The notes: generated from the sequence alone by a model not told the origin. A DNA stretch of 52,146 nucleotides from a bacterium (GCA_041690355.1 JAWLHK010000013.1:62001-114146); one strand, 5' to 3'. Positions 1,156 to 29,700 are shown, counted from the first letter of the stretch. Program-made: numbers and translations.

Positions 1156-1158
1156 GGG

Positions 1159-8101: not shown

Positions 8102-8214
8102 TGGGGAAATCTTCGCGGGCGGTCTGCAGAGTTGCGGCCGGCGAAAAGTCCCGGTAACGTATCGATGCGATCTTGTTGTCGTTGCCCCCGCGGCAGACCG
8201 TCCAGGAGAATCCC

Positions 8215-9681: not shown

Positions 9682-9721
9682 GGAGTGCCGTGAAGGGGGG
9701 CGGTGCGTTATCCTGATGGGT

Positions 9722-12358: not shown

Positions 12359-12410
12359 AGTCGGCTCCGCCGACATGTCCCTCAAGTAAGTTCTCGGTCC
12401 ATCCGAGGGA

Positions 12411-12426
12411 AGTGATTGAGATCACA
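12411..12426 (+). promoter_or_regulatory. CRP/FNR-family-like binding site
   Basis: AGTGA-ttgaga-TCACA, 9/10 match to TGTGA-N6-TCACA, centred about 42 bp upstream of the inferred start site. Confidence 0.6.
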
Positions 12427-12445
12427 GGCGCCTTTTTGACAGCTG

Positions 12446-12488: not shown

Positions 12489-12938
12489 GTGACTCGCATC
12501 GCCATCGCACTGTATCTGCTTGCCCAGGCTGCGCCCGCGCAGACGGCGCCCGACATGCAGGGAAAAGTGCGCGTCTTCATCAAGGATCCGGACGTCAAAG
12601 AGGGGTGGCGGGAGTCTGAGGTGGTGCGTCCGGGAGATACCGTCCGGTACCGGCTCGAATACCAGAACAAGGGTACCGGACCGGCCGTCGGGTTCACGCT
12701 CCAGAACGAGATTCCCGAGGGGACGCTCCTGCTCGAGCGTCCGACGGCGCGTAACTGCCGCCTCGAGTTCTCCCATGACGAGGGGCGCACGTATGCCGAG
12801 AATCCGACCCGCAAGGTGAACGGAAAAACGGTTCCCGTGCCGCCCGCCGAATTCACGCACCTGCGCTGCCGGCAGACGCCGCCGCAGATTGCACCCGGCG
12901 AGCAGGTTGCCGCCGAGTACCTGGTTCTGGTGAAGTAA
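12489..12938 (+). CDS. Small secreted single-domain DUF11-like protein (candidate chaperone/cap)
   Basis: Signal peptide; VRPGDTVRYRLEYQNKG, EFSHDEGRTY; ends AEYLVLVK without the N-x-A strand. Confidence 0.8.
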   Translation: MTRIAIALYLLAQAAPAQTAPDMQGKVRVFIKDPDVKEGWRESEVVRPGDTVRYRLEYQNKGTGPAVGFTLQNEIPEGTLLLERPTARNCRLEFSHDEGRTYAENPTRKVNGKTVPVPPAEFTHLRCRQTPPQIAPGEQVAAEYLVLVK

Positions 12939-13005
12939 GCCGCTTTACGTTCGTCGACTGCATTTTATGTCCGGGAACAAGTCGTTCCACGAGGAGGAGG
13001 GAATC

Positions 13006-15447
13006 ATGAATCGAGTCCGTTTGCTCGCGTTTGCCGTGCTGGCGCTGCTGGTTTCGGCGACCGGGGCGCAGGCCGCCGGTACGCCGGTAGGCACCGTCAT
13101 TTCGAACCAGGCCTCGGCCACCTACGAAGATTCGACCGGCAATACCTACAATGCCTTGTCGAACCTCGTCCAGATCACGGTCGAGCAGGTCTATTCGGTG
13201 ACGATTACCCCGCTGACCGCGACCGATCAGGGCGTGGCGGGCGGTATCGTCTACTACGCGCACGAAGTGCAGAATACGGGCAATGGCGGAGACTCGTTCA
13301 GCTTTTCGAGCTCCGACTCGCAGGCCGGCTTCACGTCGACCATCTATGAAGATGTCAACGGCAACGGCATCCTCGAAGGGGGCGAACCGGTTCTCGCCAG
13401 CCCCTTCGCGCTGGCGGCCGACGCCACCGTGCGCATCATCGTCGCCGTCCAGATTCCCCCGGCCCCGCTCGCTTCGAACGACACGACGGTGCTCGTGACT
13501 TCGGTGGGTGACAATACCCAGACCGCGACGGCCACGGATACGACCAATATTTCGACCGGCCCGGTGCTGAACGTGACCCTGTCGCATGCGCCGGCCACGG
13601 TCAATCCCCTCGACATCCTGACGCTCACGGCGACAGCCGACAACAACGCCGGCGTCGACGATGCCGACAACGTCGTGCTCGTGCAGGCCGTTCCCGCGAA
13701 CACCGTCCTTCAGACCGGGACGACGGTCGTCGGCGGAACGTACGGCGGAACCTTTACCGTCGAGTACGACGACGGATCGAATACGTGGGCCCTTGGCGAC
13801 TCGGCTTCGGCCACCCAGGTGCGCGTGACCCTGACCCAGGTCGGCGGCGACATCCCGGTCTCGGGCACCGTGACCCTGGCCTTTGACGTGCAGGTCCAGA
13901 CGACCGCGCCGGCCGGTACCCCCGGCGTGACCCAGACGGCCACGGTCGATTACACGAATACGGCGGCGGTCGCGCAGACCCCCGACTCGGCCACGAACGA
14001 CATCACGGTCAACCAGGCTGCGGCGGTGACCCTGACGAACGACACCGGCCCGAGCCAGTCGACGCTGCCCGGGACGGCGGCCGACTACGTCTACACGATC
14101 ATCAACACCGGCAACGGAACCGACACGTTCGACCTGACCGTGAACGCTGTGCCCGGTTTCACGGTCGAACTGCTCGACGGCGCCCTGAACCCGATCGTCG
14201 CCTCGCCGGCGCTTGCCGCGGGCGCCAGCTACTCGTTCACCGTGCGCGTGACGCCGAATGCGAACGCGGCCGACACGACGCTGGCCGCCGGTGCGGTGCA
14301 CACCGTGGTCGCCACGAGCCAGTTCAACAATACCGTCAATGACAGCGACACGGCCACGACGACGGCCGACCGCAACACGCTGGTGACGGTGAGCTCGGCC
14401 GCCCCCAGCCTGACCGGCGTCGTCGGCGGAACGATCGTTTACACGGTCACCGTCACGAACGACGGCGACGCCCCCGACGCCTTCGATCTGGCGGTCAGTG
14501 ACGTCGGCGGCACCTACGCCGGCGCCACGAACCCGTGGAACTACGTGCTCTCGGCCGTGCAGACGGCGGTTCTCGCGCCGGGCGCTTCGGAAAACATCAC
14601 GGTCACCGTCACGGTGCCGGCCGATGCCGACCCGAACATCCCCGACACGGATATCATCCGCGTGGCCGCCACGCCGGTCTATGACGACAACGGCGTGCCC
14701 GATGCGACGAATTTCGTCGACTTGACGAGCACCGTGCAGGCCAACTTCGCCCATACGCTGACGGTGGTCGGACCGGCCAACCTCGACGCCGTTTCGGGCG
14801 GCTTCGCCACCTACCAGCTCGACCTCGCCAACACCGGCGACGCCGACGACAGCTACGACCTGAGCGTCGCGGCGAGCTCGCAGGGCTGGACCTGGACGTT
14901 CTACCTCGACAACGACCTCAGCGGCACGGTGAACGCCGGCGACACGAACGTCTCGGCGACCCCGGTGGCCGTGGCCGCGGGCGGCACGGTTCGCCTGCTC
15001 GCGCGCATCACGGTTCCGGCCGTGATCCCGCCGGTGCAGGACATCTCCGACATCGCCGCCACCTCGGTGGCCGTGCCGGCGAACGTGGCCACGGTGACGC
15101 TGACGACCTCGGTCGGCGCCCCCTCGATCTCGCTCAACAAGAGCTACGTCCTGACCGACACCGACGGCAGCGGCGGCCCGACGCCGGGCGACACCGTGAC
15201 GTACACAATCACCTACACCAACACCAGCACGACGACCGACGCGCTCAACGTCGTCATCAGCGATGCCGTTCCGGCGTTCACCACCTATGTGGCGAACAGC
15301 CTGACCCTGAACGGTGCGCCGCAGACAGACGCTTCAGACTCGCCGACCGACGAAGGCGAGGTCGTGGGCGGCAACGTGCAGGTCACGGTCGGAACCGTCC
15401 CGTTCGGGGCGTCCGGCGACGTGTCCTTCAGCGTGCTGATTCAATAA
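13006..15447 (+). CDS. Secreted Ig-like/DUF11 repeat protein, 813 aa (candidate major fibre subunit)
   Basis: Strong SD GAGGAGGAGG; signal peptide ending AQA; repeated Y...NTGN.D modules; C-terminal LNKS...PGDTVTYTITYTN...ISDAVP. Confidence 0.88.
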   Translation: MNRVRLLAFAVLALLVSATGAQAAGTPVGTVISNQASATYEDSTGNTYNALSNLVQITVEQVYSVTITPLTATDQGVAGGIVYYAHEVQNTGNGGDSFSFSSSDSQAGFTSTIYEDVNGNGILEGGEPVLASPFALAADATVRIIVAVQIPPAPLASNDTTVLVTSVGDNTQTATATDTTNISTGPVLNVTLSHAPATVNPLDILTLTATADNNAGVDDADNVVLVQAVPANTVLQTGTTVVGGTYGGTFTVEYDDGSNTWALGDSASATQVRVTLTQVGGDIPVSGTVTLAFDVQVQTTAPAGTPGVTQTATVDYTNTAAVAQTPDSATNDITVNQAAAVTLTNDTGPSQSTLPGTAADYVYTIINTGNGTDTFDLTVNAVPGFTVELLDGALNPIVASPALAAGASYSFTVRVTPNANAADTTLAAGAVHTVVATSQFNNTVNDSDTATTTADRNTLVTVSSAAPSLTGVVGGTIVYTVTVTNDGDAPDAFDLAVSDVGGTYAGATNPWNYVLSAVQTAVLAPGASENITVTVTVPADADPNIPDTDIIRVAATPVYDDNGVPDATNFVDLTSTVQANFAHTLTVVGPANLDAVSGGFATYQLDLANTGDADDSYDLSVAASSQGWTWTFYLDNDLSGTVNAGDTNVSATPVAVAAGGTVRLLARITVPAVIPPVQDISDIAATSVAVPANVATVTLTTSVGAPSISLNKSYVLTDTDGSGGPTPGDTVTYTITYTNTSTTTDALNVVISDAVPAFTTYVANSLTLNGAPQTDASDSPTDEGEVVGGNVQVTVGTVPFGASGDVSFSVLIQ

Positions 15448-15464
15448 TCGACCGGCTGCGACAA

Positions 15465-15493
15465 GGAGGGGCCGCAAGGCCCCTCCCTTTTTT
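15465..15493 (+). terminator. Intrinsic terminator inside the DUF11 operon
   Basis: GGAGGGGCC-GCAA-GGCCCCTCC followed by a T tract. Confidence 0.85.
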
Positions 15494-15501
15494 GGGGTGA
15501 C

Positions 15502-18500
15502 GTGGGCCTGCGACGGTTCAGCTGGATAGGTGTCCTTGCAGCGGTGCTGTGGGGTGGCTACGCATGGACGGCCACCCTCGCAGGGGTACAGATCCGGAAT
15601 CGCGCCGAAGCGGTCTATTACGACGCCGCCGGGCGCGAGTATGTCGCCTACAGCCCCTGGAGCGTTCTTGTCGTCGCTCCGGTGCTCTCCTTTTCGATTT
15701 CACCGTCGGCCGACCAGACCCGCGAGGGTACGGCGGGTACGTTCGTCACCTTTCCCTACCTGCTCGCCAACAGCGGCAACGTCACAGCCACGCTCGCCTT
15801 TTCGCTGGCGGGCACCGGGCCGTTCGAGGCGTATGAAGATCGCAACGGCAACGGCGTGATCGATGCGGGCGACGGTCTGCTGCCGTCGAGCGTGGAGCTG
15901 GAACCCGGCGCATCGCTCTCGGTGCTCGTGCTGCTCATCGTGCCGCCCGGCTCGCTGGCGGGCGACCTGTACGCCAACGATCTGCAGATCACCGCCGACT
16001 ACCCCGACAACCCGTTCACGCCCGTCGTACAGACCGTGCGCCAACGCGTCGACGTCGTCGAAGGCTCGCGATTCAGTCTCGGCAAAGGGGTGACGCTGCA
16101 GCAGGATGTCGACGGCGACGGCCGCCCCTCGCGTGGTGACGTACTCGAGTGGTCGGTACGTGCGTTCAATGAGGGAGACGAAGAAATCACTTCGCTCGTC
16201 GTCAGCGATCCGCTTCCGCCGACCGTCGTCTACCGGCCGGGACAGACGCGGCTCGAGCCCTGGAACCTGGCGGGGGGAACCCAGGCGGTGCTCGAATCGA
16301 GCGCCGACGGTTCGGTCTGGCATCCGGGCGAACCGTTGCCGGGGGAACGTTTTCTGCGCGTGCGCATGGATCTCGGCGGCGGCGGGGTCTTTCCGTCCGG
16401 CGCCGGTTTCCGCTTCACCTACCAGACGACCATCACCGACCAGACCTCGTACCCGGCCACCATCACGAACGTGGCCGTCGCAAAGTTCGAAGATCGGTTC
16501 AGTCCGCCGGTGCACACGCATCCGTCCAATGTCGCGTCGGTATTCGTGCAGGCGACGAACGGACTCGACATGCGCCTGCCCGTGCGCACGAGCGGCACGG
16601 CCGGAAGCCGTCTGCGCTGGTCGGCGGCCGTGACGAATACCACGGCCTCTCCCGTTCTCGTGAACTTTTCGGGAACCGGCCTCGTCTGGCCGTTTGTCCT
16701 GTACGATGCCGCGGGTACACCGCTGCCGGATGCCGATAACGACGGCCGCCGCGATCTGATCGCACCGCCGGGCACCACCTATTTCCTGGTCGAAGAAGAC
16801 CTCGCGGGAGCAAACGCCGGCGACATCGGTGACCTGAGCCTGACTGCGCGATCGGCAGTCGGAGCCGTTACGCGGGTGCACCGCACCGAGGTTGTCGGCG
16901 CGGTGCTCACCGCGGCGCCGGATGCGCCGGCGACGCAGGGGGCCGCGGGGACGACGGTCCGCATTCCGGTCACGCTGACGCTGGATGCGAGTTCGAACCA
17001 GCTGGTCACCGTCACGCCGGGCAGTTCGCCCTGGCCGGTGCGCGTCGTCGATGACGCCGGCCGCCCGTTGACCGATCTGGCGCTTTATCCGGGACGGCCG
17101 GTGACGGTCTACCTCGAAGTCGACATTCCCGCCGGCACCCCCGTCGGGGCGACGCGCCTCGTCACGGCGACCGTCGGCTGGAGCGGAACGCCGATTACGG
17201 TGCAGGCGACCGTGCAGACGACGTCGAGTCTGGGGCTTCTTCTCGCCCCCAGCGGGATGCGCCAGCGCGTAAATCCAGGCGGTACCGTCGAGTTCGCGCA
17301 CGTCGTCACGAATGTCGGCACCGTGCCGCTACGGACTTCACTTGTGCTCCGCCGTGAGACCGCCGTCATTGACCCGAAGGCGATCCGGCCCCAGACCGCT
17401 TCTGCCGCCGCAGCCACCCGTGCCCAGACGGCGCGCTGGCGTTTCGATTTTCTTTCGGGCGATCGGCCCATGGTCGATGATGACGGTGACGGGTATCCTG
17501 ATTTCGGCGTGGTCCCTCCCGGCGAAACACGGCGGTTCGTCGTCCGGGTGCGCGCGCCGCTCGAGGCCGCCCTGGGCACGGTTCAACCGTTTCGCATCGT
17601 CGGGCGGGCTGTCGGATACAACGACGTCGAGATTGCAGACGAAGTCGTCGTCGGCGGCGTCCCGCGGTTCGAGGCCGAGAGCAGCCGCAAGAGCGTGTCA
17701 CCCGCCGGCCGGGTCGAACCGGGCATGACGCTGCGGTACGCCGTACGCGTACGCAACGTGGGCGAGACCGCGGGCACCGAAGTCACCATCCGCGATCCGC
17801 TCCCCCAGGGGCTCGAGACGCCGAGCATCGTGCACGGCGAGGGTGCCTGGGATGCGCAGAGCCGGACCCTGACGTTTGCGCGCCCCCGCCTGGAACCGGG
17901 CGAAGAATGGGAAGTCGCCTTCGACGCCGTGGTGGCGTCCGACGCCCCGGTCGACGAAGAGCTGGTCAACCGCGCCTTCATCCAGACGGCCGAAATCTCG
18001 CCGTTCGAAACGAACGCCACGCGCACGCTGGTGCTCGAACGCGCCTTGCGGCTGGTGAAGACCGTCGACGAGAAGACGGCCGAAACCGGCGATTTCACGC
18101 ACTGGAACCTGCTGGTCGAGAACAGCTCGCGCCGGATGCCGCTTTTCGACGTGCAGGTGACCGACCGGCTCCCCCCCGGCCTGAGCTATGTCGCCGGAAG
18201 CGCGCGCGTCGACGGGCGGAGGCTGGCCGATCCCGAACGTGACGGTTCACTGCTGGTCTGGACGCTCGACGAGCTGGCGCCGGTCACGCGGCGCAAAATC
18301 ACTTTTCTTGCCACCGTCGATCCGCTGCGCACCGGGCGGGATCGGGAGAATATCGCCTGGGCGGCGGCCCGCACGCCCAACGGCCATGCGATCGACTCGG
18401 CCCGCGCGCGGGCCGTCGTGCGCATCGTCGAGGGGCTCTTCACCGACCGCGGCACGATCATCGGACGCGTCTTCTACGATGCCGACGAAAACGGCCGCTT

Positions 18501-21500
18501 CGACGGAAACGACTTCGGCATCCCCCAGGTGCGCGTCTATCTCGACGACGGCAGCTGGGCGCTCACCGACGGCGCCGGGCAGTATCACCTCCCCGACGTC
18601 GTCGACGGGACGCATGTCGTGCGGCTCGATGCCGCGACGCTTCCCGACGGCGTGAAGCCGCGGGCCCTCGACATGCGCTTCGGCAGCCGCGAAGACAGTC
18701 AGCTCCTCTTCCTCCCCCCGTCGGGAATGGCCAAGGCCAACTTCCGCGTGGTGGGCGTGCCCGAGCGGGTCGGCACGGTGCCCCTGTTCCCCATGGAGCG
18801 GCGGGTGGCCGGGGCGGTGCGCGCTTCGCTGCAGCTTGCCGGGGTCGAAGCGGCGGCGGGGAGCGCGAGCGCGGGGCGCCTGATTCCGTACCCCGATCTT
18901 GCGGGCGCCAAACCGCCGGCGACGAGGCTTCTCGGCTGGCTGGAGGGGCTGCAGGGGCGTTCGCTCGTGCTTGACGGAACCACCGGGGCCGCCTACCTGG
19001 CGCGCAAACGCGAATTCGAGCGCGCGGGCTTCCGCGTGTCGCTGGGCGATCCGTCGGCCGTGCCGGCCATCCGGGTGCTCGGCGCCGACACGAACGGGGC
19101 CGATCTGGTGCACTTCCGCCTGATGGCCGAGGCCGAGACGACGGCGACCGTCGAACTTCAGATTCCGCCCGAGCTGGCCGTTCTGGCGCCGGAAAGCGGA
19201 TCGCTGCGCCCCGCCGGCGATCGCTGGCTGATGACGATCCCCCCCGGTTCGGCGCCGGGCACCTTTACGGCGCGCGTCCGCCCGGGTACGCCCGCCGGAA
19301 GCTATCCCGTCGTGGCCGTCGAGCGATCGACGGGGCTTGCCGTGACGGCCGAGACCGTCGTCGACGACGGTGCCGTCTGGTTGACGGGTACGCTCGGCGG
19401 CACGCAGTTCGAGGCCGGGAGCGACCGCTTGAAAGAGGCCGCTGTGGTCGAGCTGACCGTGCTCGGCGATCTGCTCGCCGCTCATCCGGATCTTGAGATC
19501 ACTGTTCTGGCGCGCGTCGACGGCAACGGCTTCGATCGCAGCGCGTTTCCCACGAATGCCGCGCTCGCCGAAGCGCGTGCCCGCGCCGTCGCCGCCGTGA
19601 TCGAGGCGCGCGGAGTCGACGCCGCGCGCCTGGCGACGGCCGGGGAGGGGAGCGAAGAAGAAGGACTCGACGGCTTCACGCTCGTCGGGCGCAATCGGAA
19701 CCAGCGGGTCGACATCCGGGTTGTCGATCCCTCGCTCCCCCCCATCCGCGTGCGCGCCGGCCGTCCGGGCGAGGCTTCGCTCAGCCGGACGTCCGAAGTC
19801 ATCCGCGGGTGGATGGCCACCGGCGCTGTCGCGCGCGACGCCGTGAAGCTGCGCTTTTCCGTTCCGGACGCCGAGCGGGCCCCGCGGCCGACCGTCGAAG
19901 TGAACGGTCTGCCGCTCGCATCGCGGGCGATCACGTCGGATACGAGCGGCTGGTATTTTCCGGCCGTCTCGGGCTCGACCTTCACGGTGCTCTACGAGAC
20001 CCCGGCATCCACGGCGACCGTGCATGTCTTCGACGTGCCCCGCGTCGGCCTCGTGAGCCGGACCGACACCGAAGTGGATCGCCTGAATCTGCAGGGTATT
20101 CTGAGCGGCTCGCAGCTTCCGCCCGGCGGCGCCGTCCCGCCCGTGCGCGACGCGACCGTGTTCCGCGCCCTGGTGCTCCCGCCCGCCGCGGGAGATACCG
20201 CCGAGGCGGTGGCGTTGCCGCCGACACTCGCGGCACCGGCGCCGCTGACCGATGCCGTGGCCGATCCGACGCCGCGCCTGATCTTTCCGCCTGCAGACGG
20301 CGTGGCAAGCCGCGCCTCGCTGCGCGTGCAGGCCGTCGTGCACGCGGCGACGACCCCGCAGCTTACGATGAACGGAGAACCGGTCGCGGCTTCGCGACGC
20401 GCGCTGCTCATCGAAGACAAGGCGCAGCAGCGCACGGCCATGGAGTGGCTCGGCGTTCCGCTCGTGACGGGAAAGAATACCTTGCTGCTCGAGGCGCGCG
20501 ACCAGTTCGGCATCGTGCGCCAGCGTGATGAGCGCACGATCTGGCTGCCCGGAGAGATCGCCCGGATCCGCGCCGCGGCCTCTCCCGCGACCCTCCCGGC
20601 CGACAGCCGCAGCATCGCCACCCTGCGCTTCGACCTGTTCGATCGGCTGGGGCTGCAGCCGGCGGATACCCGGTACGTGACCCTCGCCTTCGAAGGGGTC
20701 GAGCCTGTCGATCCGGATTTCAATCTGCTCGAGAACGGCTACCAGATTCCTGTTACGGCGGGCCGCGGGGTCGTGCGCGTGCGTGCGCCGGGCGCCGTGC
20801 GCGAAGCCTGGGTGACGGCACGCCTGGGAGCCCTGTCGACGAAACTCGACATCGGGGTCGTGCCTCAGATGCGCGACTGGATCGTCGTCGGCTTCGGCGA
20901 GGGGACCGTCGGCTACAAGAGCTTCGTGAGTCACCTGGAACCGCCCGACGGCAGCGAGACGTTCGCCAACGGCGTGTTCATCGACGGCAAGACCTCGTTC
21001 TTTCTCCGCGGGCGGATCCTGGGGGAATATCTGTTGACGGCGGCGGCCGATACCAAACGGCATGACGATTTGACCCTCTTTCAGGGGATCGAGCCCGACC
21101 GCTATTACCCCGTTTACGGCGACGACAGCGTCGTCGGCAAGGACGCGCCGACGTCGGGACCGCTCTACGTCAAGCTCGAGAAGGGAAAATCGTATCTGTT
21201 CTGGGGCGATTACAACACGTCCTTCAACGATACGGTGCTCACGGCCTATAACCGCGTCTTCAACGGTCTTGCCGCGCGCTACGATTCGCCGGGCCTGATG
21301 GCAAAGGGCTTCGTGAACTACGGCAACCAGGCGCGGGTTGTCGAGGAGCTGCGCGCCAACGGCACGAGCGGCTATTACTTTCTCTCGGCCGGTCCGATAC
21401 TCGAGGCCTCGGAGCGCCTCGAAATCGTCGTGCGCGATCGCGCCAACGAAGAATTCATCGTCTCGGTCAGGCAGCTCGTGCGCGGGGCCGACTACGACAT

Positions 21501-23289
21501 CGACTATCAGGCGGGCACCATCCTGTTTCGCGAGCCGCAGCCGGCGCTCGATCCTGACCTGAATCCGCGTTTCATCCGCGTTCTCTACGAGGTGCGGGGC
21601 GGCGATACGAAATTCTGGACGTTCGGCGGCAGGGTTCGTGCGCGGCCCACGGACTTCCTTGAAGTCGGCGCCACCGAGGTGCGCGAGCAGCGGCTGGGCG
21701 ACGCCTACAATCTCGCCGGCGTCGACGCCAAGGTCGCGCTGCCGCTGCGCACGATTGTGGGGGCCGAACTGGCGCGCTCCGACACGGTCCTGAACGGTAC
21801 CGGAACGGCCCAGCGCTACCTGCTCGAATCGAACCCGGTGGGCCCGCTCGAAATCCACGGCGACGCCTACCGGCTCACACAGCGCTTTGAAAACGAGTTT
21901 TCGCTGCTCCATCCGGGAACGACCGGCGCGCGGCTGAATGGGTTGTACCATCTGACGTCGAACGTCGATGTCGTCGCCGCCCAGACACTCGAGAAACGCG
22001 AAGGGCCGCCCGAGAGCCTCGTGAGCGCCTCGACGCTCGCCACGCGCCTCAACTGGGAACGCCAGCAGATCGAGGTGCGTTACCTTCACATCGAGAGTGA
22101 GGTCGCCGACGAGAACGAGGCCGACGATACGCTGCGCCTGAGCGGGCGGGCCCCGATTTACGACAAGCTGAGCGGAACCGTGTTCGGCGAGCAGAGCTTC
22201 CATCTGTTGCGGGCCAACGCCTTCGGGGCCGGACTCGACTACCAGCTCCTCAATTCCACCCGCGTCTACACGAAGTACGAAAACCGCAGCCGCGAGCTCT
22301 TTCTCGTGAGCGACAGCAACCTGACACAATCGCTCCCCACGGCGCTGCAGACGCAGTCGGGCCGGCAGAATCTCTTCACGCTCGGCGTCGACACGCAGCT
22401 CGAATACGGCTTCACTGCCTATTCGGAATATCGCGGCACCTATACGCCCGAGGAGCCGCTCGACCAGATCGGCTCCGGGGTGCGCAACCGCTACCCGATC
22501 ACGACCCGCTGGACCCTGAACGGGTTTGCCGAGCGGGTCGAAACGCTGCGCGGCGATCCCGACACCGAGCACTGGGCCTTCGGCGCCGGCGGCGATTACC
22601 TGTGGTCTGGCCGGGCGAAGGGGACGCTGCGGAGCGAGTACCGCATCGGCGCCATCGATCGTTCGCTCCTTTTCGTCGAGGCCTTTGCATTCAAGGCGCT
22701 CGACAGCCTGACCCTGGTCGAGAAGAACATTTACTACCGGACGTTCGACTTCGTCGAGCGCTTCTCGAACCGGTCCATGCTCGGCGCGGCCTGGCGGCCG
22801 GCCGCGCAGGATATCTTCCAGACGTTCACGCGGCTCGAGTACAAGCGGGAGCGCGCCATTCGCACGGCGACGGAAGATCGCACGGTCGGCCTCGGGGCCG
22901 TCGAGCTGTTCTTCGAGCCGGTACCCGAACTCGAGCTCGACACCAAGTTCGGGGCCAAGCGGGTGCGGGAGCTCGATCTGCCCGGCATCCCGCCGCTGAA
23001 CACCTACCTCGTGGCCGGGAGCCTCTGGCTGCAGTTTCTGCCGCATTTCGCCGTCGGGTACCACGAGCGCGATCTCTTCACCCCCGGGCTGGCGAAACAC
23101 GATGCCTCGCGCGGCCTCGAACTCGGGTGGAATGCCGTCGACGACGCCTGGTTCAACATCGGCTATAACTGGCGCGGCTTCGAAGACCGCGATTTCTCGG
23201 GCAACAGCTATTGGAGCCAGGGCCCGTACCTGCGCGTACGCTTCAAGTTTGACGAGCGCAGCCTCGACAGGGTGATCGGCCATGACTGA
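15502..23289 (+). CDS. Giant outer-membrane protein: DUF11/Ig repeats, SdrD-B-like domain, OmpA-like domain, large C-terminal beta-barrel (candidate assembly platform/anchor)
   Basis: Signal peptide; three complete K/D/N DUF11 modules; IIGRVFYDADENG; QFEAGS...NAALAEARARAV...NQRVDI; about 800 aa C-terminal region rich in amphipathic beta strands ending GPYLRVRFKFDE. Confidence 0.85.
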   Translation: MGLRRFSWIGVLAAVLWGGYAWTATLAGVQIRNRAEAVYYDAAGREYVAYSPWSVLVVAPVLSFSISPSADQTREGTAGTFVTFPYLLANSGNVTATLAFSLAGTGPFEAYEDRNGNGVIDAGDGLLPSSVELEPGASLSVLVLLIVPPGSLAGDLYANDLQITADYPDNPFTPVVQTVRQRVDVVEGSRFSLGKGVTLQQDVDGDGRPSRGDVLEWSVRAFNEGDEEITSLVVSDPLPPTVVYRPGQTRLEPWNLAGGTQAVLESSADGSVWHPGEPLPGERFLRVRMDLGGGGVFPSGAGFRFTYQTTITDQTSYPATITNVAVAKFEDRFSPPVHTHPSNVASVFVQATNGLDMRLPVRTSGTAGSRLRWSAAVTNTTASPVLVNFSGTGLVWPFVLYDAAGTPLPDADNDGRRDLIAPPGTTYFLVEEDLAGANAGDIGDLSLTARSAVGAVTRVHRTEVVGAVLTAAPDAPATQGAAGTTVRIPVTLTLDASSNQLVTVTPGSSPWPVRVVDDAGRPLTDLALYPGRPVTVYLEVDIPAGTPVGATRLVTATVGWSGTPITVQATVQTTSSLGLLLAPSGMRQRVNPGGTVEFAHVVTNVGTVPLRTSLVLRRETAVIDPKAIRPQTASAAAATRAQTARWRFDFLSGDRPMVDDDGDGYPDFGVVPPGETRRFVVRVRAPLEAALGTVQPFRIVGRAVGYNDVEIADEVVVGGVPRFEAESSRKSVSPAGRVEPGMTLRYAVRVRNVGETAGTEVTIRDPLPQGLETPSIVHGEGAWDAQSRTLTFARPRLEPGEEWEVAFDAVVASDAPVDEELVNRAFIQTAEISPFETNATRTLVLERALRLVKTVDEKTAETGDFTHWNLLVENSSRRMPLFDVQVTDRLPPGLSYVAGSARVDGRRLADPERDGSLLVWTLDELAPVTRRKITFLATVDPLRTGRDRENIAWAAARTPNGHAIDSARARAVVRIVEGLFTDRGTIIGRVFYDADENGRFDGNDFGIPQVRVYLDDGSWALTDGAGQYHLPDVVDGTHVVRLDAATLPDGVKPRALDMRFGSREDSQLLFLPPSGMAKANFRVVGVPERVGTVPLFPMERRVAGAVRASLQLAGVEAAAGSASAGRLIPYPDLAGAKPPATRLLGWLEGLQGRSLVLDGTTGAAYLARKREFERAGFRVSLGDPSAVPAIRVLGADTNGADLVHFRLMAEAETTATVELQIPPELAVLAPESGSLRPAGDRWLMTIPPGSAPGTFTARVRPGTPAGSYPVVAVERSTGLAVTAETVVDDGAVWLTGTLGGTQFEAGSDRLKEAAVVELTVLGDLLAAHPDLEITVLARVDGNGFDRSAFPTNAALAEARARAVAAVIEARGVDAARLATAGEGSEEEGLDGFTLVGRNRNQRVDIRVVDPSLPPIRVRAGRPGEASLSRTSEVIRGWMATGAVARDAVKLRFSVPDAERAPRPTVEVNGLPLASRAITSDTSGWYFPAVSGSTFTVLYETPASTATVHVFDVPRVGLVSRTDTEVDRLNLQGILSGSQLPPGGAVPPVRDATVFRALVLPPAAGDTAEAVALPPTLAAPAPLTDAVADPTPRLIFPPADGVASRASLRVQAVVHAATTPQLTMNGEPVAASRRALLIEDKAQQRTAMEWLGVPLVTGKNTLLLEARDQFGIVRQRDERTIWLPGEIARIRAAASPATLPADSRSIATLRFDLFDRLGLQPADTRYVTLAFEGVEPVDPDFNLLENGYQIPVTAGRGVVRVRAPGAVREAWVTARLGALSTKLDIGVVPQMRDWIVVGFGEGTVGYKSFVSHLEPPDGSETFANGVFIDGKTSFFLRGRILGEYLLTAAADTKRHDDLTLFQGIEPDRYYPVYGDDSVVGKDAPTSGPLYVKLEKGKSYLFWGDYNTSFNDTVLTAYNRVFNGLAARYDSPGLMAKGFVNYGNQARVVEELRANGTSGYYFLSAGPILEASERLEIVVRDRANEEFIVSVRQLVRGADYDIDYQAGTILFREPQPALDPDLNPRFIRVLYEVRGGDTKFWTFGGRVRARPTDFLEVGATEVREQRLGDAYNLAGVDAKVALPLRTIVGAELARSDTVLNGTGTAQRYLLESNPVGPLEIHGDAYRLTQRFENEFSLLHPGTTGARLNGLYHLTSNVDVVAAQTLEKREGPPESLVSASTLATRLNWERQQIEVRYLHIESEVADENEADDTLRLSGRAPIYDKLSGTVFGEQSFHLLRANAFGAGLDYQLLNSTRVYTKYENRSRELFLVSDSNLTQSLPTALQTQSGRQNLFTLGVDTQLEYGFTAYSEYRGTYTPEEPLDQIGSGVRNRYPITTRWTLNGFAERVETLRGDPDTEHWAFGAGGDYLWSGRAKGTLRSEYRIGAIDRSLLFVEAFAFKALDSLTLVEKNIYYRTFDFVERFSNRSMLGAAWRPAAQDIFQTFTRLEYKRERAIRTATEDRTVGLGAVELFFEPVPELELDTKFGAKRVRELDLPGIPPLNTYLVAGSLWLQFLPHFAVGYHERDLFTPGLAKHDASRGLELGWNAVDDAWFNIGYNWRGFEDRDFSGNSYWSQGPYLRVRFKFDERSLDRVIGHD

Positions 23290-26200
23290 CGCGCGCCGCA
23301 TCCCGTTCATTTCAAGTCTTGCTCGGGCTCTTTTGCCGGGTCTGCTCGGCCTTCTCTGTGTCCTCGCGTGGCCGGAGACGGCGCTCGCCGCGTGGCCGGC
23401 TGATGCCGACTGGATCGCAGTCAATCAAGGGGGTTCTTCGCAGGCTGACGGCACGCTCGACGAGAATACGGATTACCGCAACGTCGTCGGCGATGCATCC
23501 TACCCGGCGACCTACTGGTACAACGACGGGGTCCACCTCTCCTTCCGCATGCGGCTCGACGGCAGTCCGCAGGGGGGCGGCGGGCAGAACCTGCTCAAGC
23601 CGTTCGGCTGGGGCGTGCTCATCGATACCGACGGCGACTGGAGCGACTACGAGTTTTCGGTCATCGCCAACGGCATTGACGAGAGCGTCACGTTCTACCA
23701 GAACACGTCGCAGAACACGGCGTACGATGCGAGCGATCCGCCCGAGGTAACGCTGGCCGTATACGACACGGCCACGAACGCCAGGGTCTCGCTTGCCGAC
23801 TCGAGTTTCAACGGCACGCCAGATTACTATGTGGACTTCCAGGTCTCGTGGGCGACCTTCATGGCGGCCTCGGGCCTGAATGAAGCGAGCGCGCTGTCTT
23901 TCGTGTTCGGGACATCCAACAACGGCACGACCCTGGGCAGCGACATCAGCGGCAGTACGAACCTGGACATGGGGCAGGGGGGCGGCGACCCCGTTTATCC
24001 CAGCGTCGCCGACATGTCGTTGACGAAATCGCACGCCGCAAACTTCGCCGTCGAAGACACGGGCGTCTATACGCTCACCGTCTCGAACGCCGGCCCGTCG
24101 AACATTGCCGGTCCGATTACGGTGACCGACAGCCTGCCCGCAGGGCTGACCTTCGTGTCGGCCACGGGGAGTAACTGGAACTGCGCGGCGGCCGGGCAGG
24201 ATGTCACGTGCACCCACCCCGGCCTGCTCCTTTCGGGCGCGAGCCTTCCCCCGATCACCCTTACGGTGACCGTCGACGCGGCTGCCTGGCCCTCGGTTAC
24301 GAACACCGCCTCGGCGAGCGCGAACACGACCGATGAAGACCTGACCAACAACACCGCGTCAGACTTCACCACGGTCGAACGCCGCAGCGATCTGGCCATC
24401 GCGAAGACCGACGGGCAGGCCACGGCCATCCCCGGATCTGCCATCGCCTACACGATTACGCTCACCAATCTCGGCCCGACGAGCGTGACCGCGGCCACGG
24501 TGAGCGACACGCTTCCGGCCGCGCTGCTGGGTCCCCTCTTTGCGCCGTCTGCCGGCGCCTACGACGCGGGGAGCGGCCAGTGGACCGGCCTTGCCCTGGC
24601 GGCGGGCCAGTCGGCGACGCTCACGCTGACGGCAACTCTCGACCCGGCGGCGACCGGAACGCTCACGAACACGGTGAGCGTCACGCCCCCGCCCACGTGG
24701 ATCGATCCCGCGGCGGGAAATGACTCCGCTTCGGATACGGATACGCTGACGCCGCAGGCCGATCTGGCGATCGCGAAAACGCAGGACGGCTCCTTCACGG
24801 TGGGCGAAAGCGGAACTTTTACGATTCAGGTCGAGAACCTGGGCCCCTCGGATTCCAACGGCACCATCACGGTGACCGATACGCTCGCCTCGGAGCTTGC
24901 CTACGTCGGGGCCGCCGGCGCCGGATGGACCTGTTCGGTTTCGGGCGCGACCGTCACCTGCACGCGCGCCGGCACGGTGCCGCCGGCGACGATGCTGCCG
25001 GCCATAACGCTCACGGTGCTGCCGGCCGAGGCCGCCGCTGGGGCCTGGGTCACGAACACGGCGTCGCTGGGCGGCGCGACCCCGGATCCCGACGGCGCCA
25101 ACGATACGTCGACGATTCCCGTCCTGGTCGGGCGCCGGATCAGCGGCACGGTGTATGCCGACGCCGATCACTCGGGAACGCGCGACGGCGGCGAAGCCGG
25201 CCCGGGGGTTCCCGTCTACGCCAAGCTCGTCTCGGGGGCCGTCGTCACGCAGAGCGTCCTGGTCGACCCGGTCACCGGGGCCTACGTGCTGCGCGGGGTG
25301 CTCGACGGGTCGTACACGGTCTTCCTCGACGACAACGGCAGCCTCGCCGATGCGTCGCCGACGCCGCCGGCAGGGTGGATCGCCGTCAGTCCTGCATCGC
25401 TTTCTCAGTTCGCCGTCATGGCGGGCGCGAACGTGTCGGGGGTCGACTTCGGATTGTTCAGCGGAAGCCGCGTCGACGGGCTTGTCTTCTTCGACGATGG
25501 CGCGGGCGGCGGCGTCGCGCACGACGGTGTTCAGAACGGCGCAGAAGCCGCGCGAGCAGGCGTGTCGATCGAATTGACCGACGCCGGCGGGACGACCGTG
25601 CTGCAGGCGACGGCCACCGACGGCGCGGGGGCATTCGGGTTCTGGCTTCCCGCTTCCCTGGCCGGACAGACGGTACGCATCCGCGCGAGCGACGGCTTCG
25701 GATTCCGCTCGGCCTCGGGCAGCCCGGGAACGACCGGCGGCAGCTACGATCCGGGAACCGACGAGCTGACCTTCGTCGTCGCCGCCGGCAACGCATATAC
25801 GGGGGTTACGTTCGGCGACGTGCCCGAGAGCGAGTTCTCACCTTCACGCGCGGGGACCGTTCTCGCGGGGGGAACCATCGTTTACGCCGCGTCGTTCACG
25901 GCGGGCACCGCGGGCGATCTGGCTTTCGCGGTCGCGTCGGCCTGGCCGGCCACGGTGTATCTCGACGCCGACGCCTCGGGGACGCTCACCGCCGGCGATA
26001 CGGCCCTCGGCGGTTCGCTGGCGGTCGTGGGCGGAAACGTCTATCGCCTGCTGCTCGAAGTGTCCGTCCCCGCGGCCACGGCCGCCGGCAGCGTGGATGT
26101 CGCCACGTGGACGGCCGCGCTGACCTACGCGGGGACGGCGGTGGTGGAGTCGCACGCGGTACTCGATACGACCGCCGTCGCGCCGTCGCTCGATCTCGTC

Positions 26201-26467
26201 AAGGAGATGTCGATCAACGGCGGGGCGTTCACGTCGAGCCCGCTCGGCGCCGTTCCCGGCGATCTGGTGACCTACCGGGTGACCTATACGAATCCGAGCG
26301 CGCTCACCTTTCAGAACCTGGTCGTAAGCGATCCCATCCCACCCGCGACCACATTCGTGAGCGCGAGCGGCGCGCCCACGCTTTCGGCGGGCGTGCTCAA
26401 CTGGTCGCTCGGCGCGCTGGGGCCCGGCGCGAGCGGAACCGTGGAGTTCACGGTGCAGATTCAGTGA
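23282..26467 (+). CDS. Secreted DUF11/SdrD-B repeat protein with unique N-terminal beta domain (candidate tip adhesin)
   Basis: Overlaps upstream stop by 8 nt; signal peptide ending ALA; three complete DUF11 domains, ISGTVYAD and VDGLVFFD modules, truncated C-terminal DUF11 ending VEFTVQIQ. Confidence 0.85.
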   Translation: MTDARRIPFISSLARALLPGLLGLLCVLAWPETALAAWPADADWIAVNQGGSSQADGTLDENTDYRNVVGDASYPATYWYNDGVHLSFRMRLDGSPQGGGGQNLLKPFGWGVLIDTDGDWSDYEFSVIANGIDESVTFYQNTSQNTAYDASDPPEVTLAVYDTATNARVSLADSSFNGTPDYYVDFQVSWATFMAASGLNEASALSFVFGTSNNGTTLGSDISGSTNLDMGQGGGDPVYPSVADMSLTKSHAANFAVEDTGVYTLTVSNAGPSNIAGPITVTDSLPAGLTFVSATGSNWNCAAAGQDVTCTHPGLLLSGASLPPITLTVTVDAAAWPSVTNTASASANTTDEDLTNNTASDFTTVERRSDLAIAKTDGQATAIPGSAIAYTITLTNLGPTSVTAATVSDTLPAALLGPLFAPSAGAYDAGSGQWTGLALAAGQSATLTLTATLDPAATGTLTNTVSVTPPPTWIDPAAGNDSASDTDTLTPQADLAIAKTQDGSFTVGESGTFTIQVENLGPSDSNGTITVTDTLASELAYVGAAGAGWTCSVSGATVTCTRAGTVPPATMLPAITLTVLPAEAAAGAWVTNTASLGGATPDPDGANDTSTIPVLVGRRISGTVYADADHSGTRDGGEAGPGVPVYAKLVSGAVVTQSVLVDPVTGAYVLRGVLDGSYTVFLDDNGSLADASPTPPAGWIAVSPASLSQFAVMAGANVSGVDFGLFSGSRVDGLVFFDDGAGGGVAHDGVQNGAEAARAGVSIELTDAGGTTVLQATATDGAGAFGFWLPASLAGQTVRIRASDGFGFRSASGSPGTTGGSYDPGTDELTFVVAAGNAYTGVTFGDVPESEFSPSRAGTVLAGGTIVYAASFTAGTAGDLAFAVASAWPATVYLDADASGTLTAGDTALGGSLAVVGGNVYRLLLEVSVPAATAAGSVDVATWTAALTYAGTAVVESHAVLDTTAVAPSLDLVKEMSINGGAFTSSPLGAVPGDLVTYRVTYTNPSALTFQNLVVSDPIPPATTFVSASGAPTLSAGVLNWSLGALGPGASGTVEFTVQIQ

Positions 26468-26753
26468 CCCTGCGGGGCTGTTTCAGAAATCCTTACAAAT
26501 TTCTTTTGCTTCCCGTTGACTTCCTGTATACTGTAGCTTCGCCTCGCTTCAGGCAGGTGAAGCTTTACTGGCTTCCCGGATAGCGACTGCACTGCAGGTA
26601 GCGCTCGTTCGGGGGGACGTAAAATCGGATCGCCCGTACCGAATCCTTCGGGCTCGCAAAAAGTTTTTTCAACCTTTTCGCGGTCAGCTCCCGCGTCGCC
26701 GCTGCGTTTTGAGTCGTGCGCGCGCGGTTGCAGCGACCGAGGAGTTACAATTC

Positions 26754-29700
26754 GTGGCCGTCGACAAAGACGCGGTCATGCGTCTTCTCACCGAGAAGAC
26801 CTACCGCCCTTTGACGCGATCCGAGCTGGAATCGCGTCTTTCCGTCCCTGAAGCAGACCGGGCAGCCTTTTCAACGCATCTCGACGAGTTGATCCACGCG
26901 GGTCAGATCGTAGCCTTGCGCGGCGACCGCATCGGTCTTCCCAACAAAATGAACCTCCTGACGGGCGTGCTCCAGGCGCATCCGAACGGGTTCGCCTTTC
27001 TCGTCCCCGACAAGCCGGGCGAGCGTGCCGCCGATGTCTTCATCGGTCGCAACGACACCGGCGACGCCATGCACGGCGACAAGGTGGTTGTGCGCATCGA
27101 GCGCATGGGCCGCTCCGGACGTCCCGAGGGGCGCGTCATCCGCGTGCTCGAGCGGCGCGTGCGGCGGGTCGTCGGCGAATTTCAGCAGGGGACCGGCTTC
27201 GGCTATGTCGTTCCCGAAGAAGGGCGCCACCTGCATCACATCTACATCCCCCGCGGACGCGACAAGCGCGCCCTCGCCGGCCAGATTGTGGTCGCTGAGA
27301 TCCGCAAGTATCCCGAGGGCAACCGCGACCCCGAAGGCGAAGTCATGCGCGTCATCGGCAGCCGCAAGGATCCCGGCGTCGACCGCGAAGTCGTCGTCGA
27401 GCGCCACGGGCTGTCGAGCCGGTTTCCCACCGAGGTGCTGACCGAGGCCAAGCGGGTTCCGACGGAAATCGATACGGTCGAACTCGGCCTGCGGGTCGAT
27501 CTTCGCGGCCTCAAGGTCTTCACCATCGACGGCGAGAAGGCGAAGGATTTCGACGACGCCGTGGCCATTCAGCGGCTGACCGACGGGCGTTTCCGCCTGT
27601 GGGTGAGCATCGCCGACGTGGCCCACTACGTGAAGCCGGGAACCGATCTCGACAAGGAAGCGCGGGCGCGCGCGACGAGCGTCTACTTCGCCGACAGCGT
27701 CATCCCGATGCTTCCCGAAGAGATCTCGAACAACATCTGCTCACTCGTGCCGCATCAGCCGCGCCTGACCATGACGGCCGAACTCGAGTACGACAGCGAA
27801 GGCAAGCTGGTTCGCAGCCAGTTCTATGACAGCGTCATCGTCTCGAAGGAGCGCCTGACCTACACGCAGGTCAAGCAGATCCTGACCGATCGGAACGAGG
27901 ACCTGCTGGGCCGCTACCGCTATCTCGAAGACGACCTGCGCGCCATGCAGGAGCTGGCCCTCAAGCTCAAGTCACGGCGCGATGAGCGCGGATCGCTCGA
28001 CTTCGACCTCCCCGAGCCCGATCTGCTGCTCGACCTCGAGGGAAACATCGAATCGATCGTGCGCGCCGAGCGCAACATCGCCCACCGCATCATCGAAGAG
28101 TTCATGCTGGCGGCCAACGAAGCCGTGGCCGATTTTCTGCAGAAAGAAAACGTCCCGGGCCTCTACCGCTGCCACGACGAGCCCGATCCGGCCAAGATCG
28201 AAGACCTCCGCCAGTTCCTGCACAACCTCAACGTGCGCGTCGATCAGCGCATTACGCCGAAGGCCCTGCAGCGTATCCTGCGCCAGGTGCAGGGTAAGCC
28301 GCTCGAGAAGCTCGTGAATGAAGTCGTGCTGCGCACGATGAAGCATGCCTACTATTCGCCGCGCAACACCGGGCACTTCGGCCTGGCCAGCGAAACGTAC
28401 CTGCACTTCACGAGCCCGATCCGGCGCTATCCCGATCTGGTCACGCACCGCAGCCTGAAAGCGGTGCTCGAGCGCGGGGGCATGAGCGAGCGTCAGCGCG
28501 AAGAACTGCGCGCGACGCTCGGCGAAACCGCTTTGCACTGCTCCGAACGCGAGAAGAACGCCGAGCGTGCCGAGCGCGAAGTTCTGGCCGCCAAGAAAGT
28601 CGAGTTCATGCGCCGCTTCGCCGGCGAAGAGTTCGACGGCTACATTTCGGGCGTCACGTCGTTCGGCTTCTTCGTAGAGCTGCGCGACCTGTTCGTCGAC
28701 GGCCTGGTGCACGTCTCGAACCTCGGGGACGACTACTACGAGTTCCGCGACCGCGAACATTCGCTCGTCGGCACCGCCACCGGGCGCCGGTTTCAGCTGG
28801 CCGACCGGGTGCGCGTGCGCGTGGCCCGGGTCGACGTCGAAAAGCGGCACATCGATTTCGAACTCGTCAGCGAAGTCTTTCGCGAGGCCCTCGTCCAGGA
28901 AGAGGCCGTCGCGCAGCGCGGACGTCCCGTGCCGCAGGTCGCCGCCGAACCCGCCCATCCCGAAACGGGGGACGGCCGCGGACGCGGCCGGCGACAGGCG
29001 CCGGTGCCGCGCAGCGGCATTGTGCGCACGGCGCGCCCCGAAGAGTCGCCCGATGAAGATCGGCGCCGGCGGGCACGCGGCCGCAAGGAGCGCGCGGTCG
29101 AGCCGCGCCGCGGTCAGGAGGAGGCCCGTGCCGAAGGGCGCGAAGCGCGCGAGCCACGTGCGAAGCCCGAGCGGCGTGAGCGCGCCGCCGTGCGTCCTGC
29201 CGCGCCCGAACTCGAAGCGCCTCCCGTGAACGAAGAGAGCCCCACGGTGCCGCCACCGATGGCAGAGCATCCCGAATCGTTCCTCACGCCGCCCGCCGCC
29301 GAAGAGGGCGGCGCGGATGAAGCGGCGGGCCGCCGCCGCCGTCGCCGCCGGGGTGGCCGGGGTCGACGCCGCCGGGGCGCCGAAGACGGCGTGAGCGCCG
29401 ACGGGCAGGGCGCTGAAGGCGAATTCGAAGGGGAAGAATCGGAGGAGGAAGGCGAAAACGCAGCGCGGCCTGCGCCTCTTGAAGGCGCCGAGGGCGAACC
29501 TGCCCTGGCGGCCGCCGAAGCGCCCACAGCCGAGCCCGCGCTCGAGGGTGAAGCGCCGGTGCGCGGTCGCCGGGAGCCCCGCCCCCGCCGCGGTCGCGGC
29601 CGTCGGCCCGAAGGGGATACCGAGGGCGAAGCGCAGTCTGAGACGCCTGCGCGCGAAGCCGCCACACCGGCGCCGTCCGAAGCCACCGCGTCAGCGGTTT

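Follow-up and report, generated by a model that had tools for sequence, protein, structure and literature searches.

In the present study, we analysed a 52,146-nucleotide stretch of bacterial DNA (GCA_041690355.1 JAWLHK010000013.1:62001-114146, one strand), hereafter the window, whose positions serve as coordinates throughout, and concentrated on four closely packed, co-directional genes within 12489-26467 on the plus strand, the open reading frames (ORFs) of which encode a small secreted protein, a shaft subunit, a base protein ending in a giant beta-barrel and a tip protein (Table 1). An earlier interpretation of this DNA, the sequence-only reading, had seen in them a candidate fibre or pilus system made of DUF11 proteins with complementary donor and acceptor ends, and the four ORFs, together with the terminal strings quoted for them, lie exactly where it had put them; the evidence weighed here for a fibre is computational throughout. 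Each of the four proteins (4/4) begins with an N-terminal signal peptide, as read from its sequence. The shaft, whose database copy is the 813-amino-acid (aa) form, is arranged as signal peptide, donor hairpin, immunoglobulin (Ig)-like domains and terminal acceptor domain, and the base has no acceptor end by profile scan. The tip, the start of whose gene overlaps the base gene by 8 bases, combines a variable N-terminal part holding three complete copies of the DUF11 (CLIPPER) domain with a conserved C-terminal portion of ~450 aa and a terminal acceptor, and carries no donor.

As to named families, TIGR01451 of NCBIfam matches all four proteins (4/4), PF01345 of Pfam matches shaft, base and tip, SdrD_B is matched in base and tip (Pfam/NCBIfam), and TIGR04226 (RrgB_K2N_iso_D2, NCBIfam) matches the tip with an E-value (E) of 2.7e-12. 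For the small protein over its whole length and for the last ~1200 residues of the base, no curated family was found in Pfam or NCBIfam, and the Atlas clusters for the operon proteins bear only generic names or none.

Table 1. Genes of the four-gene operon and the domains and termini discussed in the text (window positions).
Feature	Position	Strand	Remarks
Small secreted acceptor-only protein, 149 aa	12489-12938	+	C-terminal end ...EYLVLVK; single CLIPPER/DUF11-like beta-sandwich ending after F-strand
Shaft subunit, 813 aa (from M14) or 826 aa (upstream ATG 12967)	12967/13006-15447	+	ends ...SFSVLIQ
Shaft donor hairpin (GTPVGTVISNQASATY...SNLVQITV)	13078-13197	+	Asn47 (826-aa numbering), predicted isopeptide Asn
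Shaft acceptor, truncated C-terminal CLIPPER domain	15070-15444	+	Lys725, Asp766 (826-aa numbering)
Base protein, 2595 aa	15502-23289	+	signal peptide, donor hairpin, Ig-like/CLIPPER/SdrD_B stalk, OmpA-like domain, C-terminal giant beta-barrel
Base donor hairpin (ATLAGVQIRNRAEAVY...SPWSVLVV)	15571-15705	+	donor profile E 4.2e-6, ORF residues 42-86
OmpA-like (peptidoglycan-binding type) domain	19408-19701	+	PF00691, E 5.8e-9, residues 1303-1400, between stalk and barrel
C-terminal outer-membrane beta-barrel module, 795 aa	20902-23286	+	ends ...YLRVRFKFDE
Tip protein, 1061 aa	23282-26467	+	ends ...EFTVQIQ; signal peptide, acceptor-terminated
Tip acceptor, truncated C-terminal CLIPPER domain	26171-26464	+	DUF11 13-84/114, ending at residue 97 of 98

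The small, shaft and tip proteins all break off within a DUF11 (CLIPPER) domain, about 30 profile positions early. The last residue lies at position 62/114 of the DUF11 profile in the shaft and at 84/114 in the tip, both C-termini reach 94/132 of the DUF7927 profile, that of the tip reaches 75/105 of DUF7507, and these terminal matches of shaft and tip extend to within one residue of the protein end; the three internal copies tested from the same two proteins run on to DUF11 positions 109/114, 113/114 and 98/114. For the small protein, the DUF11 match is confined to profile positions 11-51. The profile coordinates thereby bear out the early stop that had been claimed for these three C-termini. 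Directly after the signal peptide, the shaft carries one hairpin (GTVISNQASATY...SNLVQITV) and the base another (GVQIRNRAEAVY...SPWSVLVV), and both align with the final two strands of complete copies, where the motif reads ...TNTAS...N(N/D)(T/S)A...V; the further claim that two N-termini carry the missing strands was upheld by this alignment to the complete copies and to the solved structure 9IFR. Taken alone, the two 45-residue hairpin pieces gave no Pfam match at E up to 10.

The host genome comprises 4.64 Mb and is 100% complete by marker genes. Throughout this genome, the donor-hairpin profile matched only the shaft and the base (E <1e-2), the terminal-acceptor profile only the shaft and the tip, and the barrel profile only the 2595-aa protein, and the small-protein profile found the 149-aa protein (2.4e-25) as well as weaker stretches in other DUF11-bearing proteins, the best of them in the tip (5.7e-8). 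The tally is two donor ends, three acceptor ends and one barrel, all inside the operon. Among 62 non-redundant homologues, the shaft donor has a mean column identity of 76%, with I8, N10, Y16, D18, S28 and N29 invariant; for comparison, the value is 36% for the shaft acceptor domain, where K24 and D65 reach 90% or more, and about 30% for the whole shaft. The split-domain pattern exceeds chance.

The same pattern recurs widely. Word-indexed protein searching with the shaft gave 227 proteins at E 1e-5 or better, and among the best 120 of these 227, the hairpin motif is present within the first 120 residues in 117/120 and the C-terminus of nearly all lies no more than a few residues away from a ...TFGV(K/R)I-type strand; the names borne by these 120 at their sources are 'DUF11 domain-containing', 'beta strand repeat-containing', 'uncharacterized repeat protein (TIGR01451 family)' and, at JGI, 'trimeric autotransporter adhesin'. 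Shaft length among the relatives ranges from 279 to about 980 aa. A genome scan with one genome per species identified 474 encoding stretches, 80 loci of which were kept for analysis (numbered with an L below) and scanned with donor, acceptor, barrel and small-protein profiles. The hosts include Beta- and Gammaproteobacteria (Polaromonas, Ramlibacter, Rhizobacter, Thiobacillus, Uliginosibacterium, Steroidobacteraceae, Moraxellaceae), Verrucomicrobia, Acidobacteria (Candidatus Angelobacter, Terriglobia), Candidatus Eisenbacteria, Bacteroidota, Desulfuromonadales, Thermodesulfovibrionales, Latescibacterota, Marinimicrobia and Thermaceae.

The shaft gene is complete in 79 loci, the window counted; L015 and L087, with the shaft cut by a contig end, stand outside the 79. 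In these 79 loci, from about ten phyla, the gene order small, shaft, barrel-base and tip is repeated, so that the synteny search suggested in the sequence-only reading did find the four-gene order again across phyla. The small gene lies upstream of the shaft in 76/79 by a positional filter, with the remaining three (L024, L032 and L056) having it in the gene listing, and the barrel gene lies directly downstream of the shaft in 57/57 loci with >6.5 kb of flank. The gene after the shaft carries the donor hairpin in 60/76 by profile (E <1e-3) and in the other 16 by eye, where an x-N-x-A-type hairpin is seen just after the signal peptide, the Asn position being Leu in L027 and Ser in L082. Where 4.5 kb or more of sequence is available, an acceptor-ending tip gene follows in 20/28 loci, the gene extending past the locus end in several of the remaining 8, and only residues ~620-1061 of the tip are common to many loci according to BLAST against them. 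Homologues thus keep the donor/acceptor pattern, and the assignment of the base as donor-only, the shaft as donor plus acceptor and the tip as acceptor-only holds in the relatives.

To judge by its barrel, the system is common. Among representative clusters, the barrel profile matched 4950 at E <=1e-3, 3966 at 1e-10 and 2727 at 1e-30; 109 of the best 150 clusters have at least 1400 aa and a Met start, and of those 109 the donor is found by profile in 76, by a loose motif only in 19 and by neither in 14. Barrels at E 1e-10 or better are encoded in 34/401 sampled genomes, which are spread over several hundred families.

Two loci show other arrangements. At L084 (Marinimicrobia, 151-12437), two small or acceptor-ending genes lie upstream of a 561-aa shaft, and the base is divided over two genes, one for a donor-bearing stalk of 2005 aa and one for a barrel of 1050 aa. 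At L008/L002 (G029:C104), from another phylum, the shaft gene (L002 1492-2331) encodes a 279-aa 'mini-shaft' consisting of hairpin, one middle domain and acceptor; it directly follows a bacterial sugar-transferase-like gene, the gene after it is unrelated to the barrel, and the barrel profile found no barrel on this 19.9-kb contig.

The residues at the split bear on its chemistry. A 2025 survey (PMC12617251) gave DUF11 the name 'CLIPPER' and presents the crystal structure 9IFR of such a domain, with a CnaA-like fold and an intramolecular isopeptide bond between Lys715 and Asn806 for which Asp748 is catalytic; by the same source, the triad is absent from many DUF11 copies. The profile of the window's five complete copies matches 9ifr_A (E 3.7e-7), and phmmer of the tip against PDB sequences gave no match at E 0.01 or better. 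When aligned to 9IFR, Lys715 corresponds to the conserved first-strand K, Asp748 to the D of 'D-x-L-P' and Asn806 to the N of 'T-N-T-A-S', the equivalent of which in the donor is the N of 'ISNQAS', that is, shaft donor N10. The triad is divided, with Lys and Asp in the acceptor (shaft Lys725, Asp766) and Asn in the first strand of the donor (Asn47). Terminal copies stop before the Asn strand, and the Asn stands at the N-terminus of another protein, or ~680 residues away in the same chain; a complete triad was found within no single terminal domain and is complete only across termini. The Lys-Asp-Asn idea of the sequence-only reading consequently fits the solved CLIPPER triad but has to be amended in one respect: the bonding Asn is that of N-x-A, on the first donor strand, and not the final S/T-N.

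These residues are kept to a striking degree at the places where subunits would meet. The shaft acceptor has Lys (K24) in 75/80 and Asp (D65) in 78/80, two of the five Lys misses being alignment gaps with the Lys visible by eye, the tip acceptor has Lys in 31/31 and Asp in 31/31, with every tip stopping directly after the F-strand, and the donor Asn is present in 62/62 shafts and in 60/69 alignable base sequences, the others having Ser (6), Ala (2) or Leu (1). True losses tend to occur together: L027 has lost the shaft-acceptor Lys and Asp together with the base-donor Asn, L082 the shaft-acceptor Lys and the base-donor Asn, and L042 the shaft-acceptor Lys and Asp. In some lineages, base and shaft may be joined non-covalently. 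Taken with the small protein described below and the internal shaft copy of the window, the shaft, tip and donor counts indicate that the triad is kept at the expected subunit junctions and lost elsewhere.

Several observations on individual copies may be added. Ala or Ser occupies the base-donor Asn position in L011, L014, L039, L040, L055, L070 and L073, all of which keep the shaft donor Asn, and close relatives differ at this position, as in Polaromonas with Ala in L011 and Asn in L021. In the complete internal CLIPPER-like copy of the window's shaft (13550-13950, residues ~195-330), the places of Lys, Asp and Asn are taken, by eye, by H, Q and Q; the consensus of this copy in homologues retains K, D and N.

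The small protein departs from the triad. At its Asp position, 67/72 homologues carry L, V, I or M and 2 only carry Asp (72-row alignment), and its homologues have no conserved first-strand Lys. The Lys is kept in a subgroup made up of the window, L015 and L082, the last two of which also keep the Asp, and the window's own small protein has Asn at the catalytic Asp position. The model of this protein is a confident stand-alone beta-sandwich (predicted local distance difference test, pLDDT, 90.6), with which a fold search of the PDB gave no match at E 1e-3 or better, 9IFR ranking 41 with E 0.04 and a template modelling (TM) score on target of 0.52. The small protein may be a non-covalent binder of donor hairpins, which would either hold donors reversibly in the periplasm or serve tip-less fibres as a minimal distal cap. 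We infer these two roles side by side; the label 'chaperone', which the sequence-only reading gave to the 149-aa protein, survives as one of two readings, the distal cap being the other.

Complex prediction was carried out with the shaft acceptor (last 125 aa, 62-row alignment) and the shaft donor (40 aa, 62 rows, 60 used). This pairing of the N-terminal 40 aa of the shaft with its own truncated C-terminal domain, which had been proposed along with the fibre idea as a way to check it, scored 0.65, against 0.02 for the best of 3 controls, and came out in favour of the proposal; the same mark is reached by 58/80 solved complexes and 2/110 mismatched pairs, a calibration that is rough because custom alignments were used. 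Contact agreement in the complex runs was at least 98% and partner pLDDT at least 79. The predicted interface involves donor residues 8-19 and 26-31 and the acceptor strands holding K24 and D65; in the model, donor residues 12-17 pair with acceptor 58-65, and acceptor L22 contacts donor A12 and A26. Such a geometry would place K24 beside N10, with D65 adjacent.

With regard to the base, the barrel model (AF2) is all-beta, with pLDDT 75.2, a predicted TM score (pTM) of 0.60 and 32 long strands counted from residue 222 onward, with others before it, and its C-terminal motif (...RLRFKFDE) is conserved. Neither the barrel nor base residues 1401-1800 gave a Pfam match at E up to 10. Fold searching with Foldseek returned generic large barrels (LptD, SlpA, MtrB, TonB-dependent receptors, FimD) at TM 0.17-0.32 among the matches listed, and VIA-align gave Z 10.8-13.4 with no family standing out, FimD (Z 12.9, root-mean-square deviation 6.2, 321 aligned) being tied with porins and TonB-dependent receptors. 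The best-conserved block of the barrel, at ~21350-21620 (~150-240 of the 795-aa piece), contains R-D-R, D-Y and several invariant G and P and forms short small strands between the long barrel strands; judging from the model, this block might form a plug of the kind found in ushers. Base residues ~1200-1700 (~19100-20600), where the OmpA-like domain lies, are a lineage-specific insertion: by BLAST, no locus among the 80 covers ~1300-1700, and the OmpA match is absent from the 3 other base proteins scanned, which have an Invasin_D3-like domain or no named domain before the barrel. The OmpA-like insert, confined to this lineage, suggests a periplasmic location for the pre-barrel segment and an outward course for the N-terminal stalk. 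Omp85 proteins are present in the genome, which identifies the cell as a diderm.

Taken together, the four genes probably give rise to a fibre or stalk on the surface of a diderm, which is assembled independently of sortase by complementing a split CLIPPER (DUF11, CnaA-like) domain in trans and is likely locked by isopeptide bonds. Since the base donates only, the tip and the small protein accept only and the shaft does both, the sole consistent order would be the tip at the distal end, then one or more shafts, then the base. The N-terminal hairpin of the shaft would insert into the C-terminal domain of the tip, further shaft copies may join head-to-tail, and the hairpin of the base would fill the last shaft acceptor. 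Because this polarity is the same as that of chaperone-usher pili, the fibre may be supposed to grow at its base with the tip first. As the acceptor supplies Lys and Asp and the donor supplies Asn, the junctions are probably locked by autocatalytic intermolecular Lys-Asn isopeptide bonds, as the chemistry of 9IFR and the pattern of conservation suggest.

The barrel of the base would sit in the outer membrane as an anchor and probably as a conduit, perhaps passing folded subunits, for which a barrel of >30 strands should be wide enough, to judge from the strand count alone; the OmpA-like domain would provide, in this lineage, an extra tie to peptidoglycan. An adhesive role is suggested by the variable distal half of the tip, its sole basis. 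Going further, it is possible, although we hold it somewhat less than evenly probable, that these loci represent an unrecognised and widespread class of Gram-negative pili, with no sortase or PapD-type chaperone, with a self-locking split CLIPPER domain, with export and anchoring by a giant barrel, and with a dead acceptor serving as a 'reverse' chaperone that holds donors.

A number of points weigh against the proposed fibre. The pass in complex prediction is, as a modelling result, one of shape complementarity between two pieces and not of binding in the cell, and, given that a complete CLIPPER domain has already been solved, it may simply mirror likeness to 9IFR. The small protein is modelled confidently on its own, so a truncated domain, as far as models go, need not be unstable. 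Base donors lack the Asn in 9/69 cases, which means that the base-shaft junction, at least, is not always covalent. The proposal offers no means by which an acceptor would escape capture by the donor of its own chain, and an assembly of 1:1:1 composition fits the data equally well. Furthermore, the barrel matches no translocon family specifically in Foldseek or VIA-align, and a BLAST comparison of the 80 loci with every window ORF of 120 aa or more revealed no conserved neighbour beyond the four genes, and so no candidate for an assembly factor.

The question of composition leads to the alternative that survives best, namely a fixed three-part adhesin of one base, one shaft acting as adaptor and one tip, in which addition of shaft to shaft is rare or absent. 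The computed data fit one shaft copy or many alike, the base and the tip are already long multi-domain stalks, and each genome has a single shaft gene beside one base and one tip gene. However, the shaft's own donor and acceptor pass complex prediction together, the shaft donor is the best-conserved part, as would be expected if it had to fit both tip and shaft acceptors, and shaft lengths from 279 to about 980 aa fit a repeating unit. We therefore regard a fixed three-part adhesin as unlikely, though it deserves serious attention.

Somewhat similarly, the subunits could complement one another in trans and remain non-covalent, as in chaperone-usher pili, with Lys, Asp and Asn as structural relics of a CLIPPER ancestor. 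This would agree with the base donors devoid of Asn (9/69 loci), with the persistence of the cassette despite three shaft acceptors without Lys, with the many DUF11 copies that lack the triad (PMC12617251) and with BsaA of Clostridium perfringens, where, according to the part of the source at hand, strand exchange alone yields sodium dodecyl sulphate (SDS)-resistant oligomers (bioRxiv 10.1101/2024.11.04.621531). Nevertheless, mere relics would hardly be near-invariant at exactly the expected junctions (shaft donor Asn 62/62, tip Lys and Asp 31/31 each, shaft Asp 78/80) and lost where no bond is needed (hydrophobic in 67/72 small proteins; H, Q and Q in the internal shaft copy), nor would losses on the two sides be expected to coincide as they do in L027 and L082, and we consider an entirely non-covalent fibre distinctly unlikely. 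It is very improbable, finally, that there is no assembly at all and that these are independent DUF11 surface or periplasmic proteins whose hairpins fold on their own chains and whose C-terminal domains are stable as they are, for although the small protein models well alone (pLDDT 90.6) and shaft homologues bear generic names only, such as 'DUF11 domain-containing protein', cis-completion cannot explain a base with a donor and no acceptor or a tip and a small protein with an acceptor and no donor, and the gene order strictly conserved across about ten phyla, the homology of the hairpin to the missing strands and the complex score of 0.65 versus 0.02 for the best control all speak against it.

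Two known types of surface structure were also considered and rejected. A classical autotransporter (type Va) has a 12-strand barrel and a linker helix, and the present barrel is far too large (>30 long strands over ~700 residues in the model) and has no PF03797 match; a type V pilus (FimA/Mfa1), which is made from lipoprotein precursors matured by proteolysis and has a C-terminal donor strand, is not supported either, as there is no lipobox, Cys is absent from the signal-peptide cleavage region, and the donor here sits at the N-terminus.

The proposed trans-complemented fibre resembles chaperone-usher pili (FimA-FimH, FimC/PapD, FimD/PapC) in its acceptor-only tip, its donor-only last subunit, the outer-membrane barrel at its base and a compact operon with a small periplasmic partner. 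In both, an incomplete subunit is made whole by its neighbour's N-terminal extension, a completion seen here in silico only and with a two-strand donor. The donor is thus a two-strand hairpin here and one strand there; the completed fold is a CnaA-like CLIPPER domain, in which a covalent junction probably forms; the terminal subunit itself carries the barrel, which apparently has well above 24 strands; and the small protein offers a groove, not a donor strand. None of the four proteins matched PapD (PF00345/PF02753), usher or fimbrial families of Pfam, in agreement with the statement of the sequence-only reading that no recognisable PapC or PapD is encoded here, and the usher family PF00577 matched neither the barrel nor anything in the whole genome. 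The only PapD_N match in the genome is marginal, at 24.5 bits against a cut-off of 23, and lies unlinked on another contig (G000:C6:163198-163533, in a 300-aa frame).

Compared with the CLIPPER domain of 9IFR, the domain family and the Lys-Asp-Asn positions are the same; as described in PMC12617251, however, the bond there is an intrachain one, formed in the stalk of an adhesin made of a single polypeptide, whereas the terminal copy here is split over two polypeptides, so that the bond, if formed, would connect subunits; the consulted part of the survey treats intramolecular bonds only. Strand complementation followed by covalent locking has precedents. BsaA of the TasA family, as far as the consulted part of its description goes, undergoes insertion of an N-terminal strand and then forms an autocatalytic intersubunit isopeptide bond through an N-E-K triad with no sortase (bioRxiv 10.1101/2024.11.04.621531), and the Sulfolobus threads are described, in the corresponding part of their source, as donor-strand 'exchange and lock' fibres (PMC9715654). 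By these partial accounts, the two differ from the present system in their hosts, which are Gram-positive and archaeal, in their unrelated folds, and in having no outer-membrane component, no base barrel, no acceptor-only tip gene and no small protein of acceptor type. TasA, Peptidase_M73 and SipW gave no Pfam or NCBIfam match in the four proteins; the neighbours were checked by Pfam upstream and by translation downstream, and no genome-wide search for SipW was made.

Sortase pili (SpaA, RrgB) are likewise covalent fibres of CnaA/CnaB-type isopeptide domains, but their subunits are linked by transpeptidation onto the Lys of a pilin motif, and the link here would be autocatalytic, within a reconstituted domain. 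No LPXTG-type signal is found at the C-termini (...LVLVK, ...SVLIQ, ...TVQIQ), the proteins stopping right after a beta-strand, and a search of the genome (100% complete by marker genes) found no sortase (PF04203). Another analogy in design is SpyTag/SpyCatcher, an engineered split CnaB2 domain of which one piece provides Lys together with the catalytic acid, the other piece the partner residue, and which bonds spontaneously. It is man-made, is derived from CnaB and has an Asp on a single-strand tag, whereas the present pair is natural, belongs to the CnaA-like CLIPPER fold and has an Asn on a two-strand hairpin.

Regarding novelty, no paper or curated model describing the cassette was found in a search that left supplements (including those of PMC12617251) and subscription-only papers outside its scope. 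The one relevant paper on isopeptide bonds in DUF11 was the CLIPPER survey (PMC12617251). Papers on covalent Gram-negative pili, judged by title and the start of the abstract, contained none on this system, and a 2026 review mentions neither DUF11 nor CLIPPER in its initial 300,000 characters. The cassette is apparently undescribed so far. Its novelty lies in parts that are unrelated to the known examples, complementation and covalent lock being already known elsewhere.

The neighbours of the operon are unrelated housekeeping genes. Upstream, 9638-12358 encodes a nucleotidyltransferase of the poly(A) polymerase type, a 906-aa fusion (from a TTG start) that joins DHH/DHHA1, a pair of CBS domains and a head domain of the poly(A) polymerase/CCA-adding kind, as assigned by Pfam. 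Downstream, 26709-29933 encodes an RNase R-like protein, named by reading its translation, with a C-terminal low-complexity tail of ~350 residues rich in Arg, Glu, Ala and Gly and containing several RRRRR runs. Near the window start, a 1029-aa open frame on the minus strand gives, at 1408-1935, a weak match to the Omp85 family that stays below the cut-off (E 9.1e-4).

If the proposed fibre is real, it would add a further class of diderm fibres beside chaperone-usher, type IV, type V and curli structures, and would unite strand complementation, as in Gram-negative pili, with isopeptide cross-linking, as in Gram-positive pilins, two principles mostly apart so far, in components unrelated to either. 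It would raise, in turn, the question of how folded, cross-linked subunits cross the outer membrane, and would supply natural orthogonal split-domain ligation pairs for protein engineering. Moreover, the carriers include lineages of soil, freshwater and groundwater, such as Polaromonas, Thiobacillus, Acidobacteria and Verrucomicrobia, and many proteins that are named only 'DUF11 domain-containing' or 'beta strand repeat-containing' would find their explanation in it.

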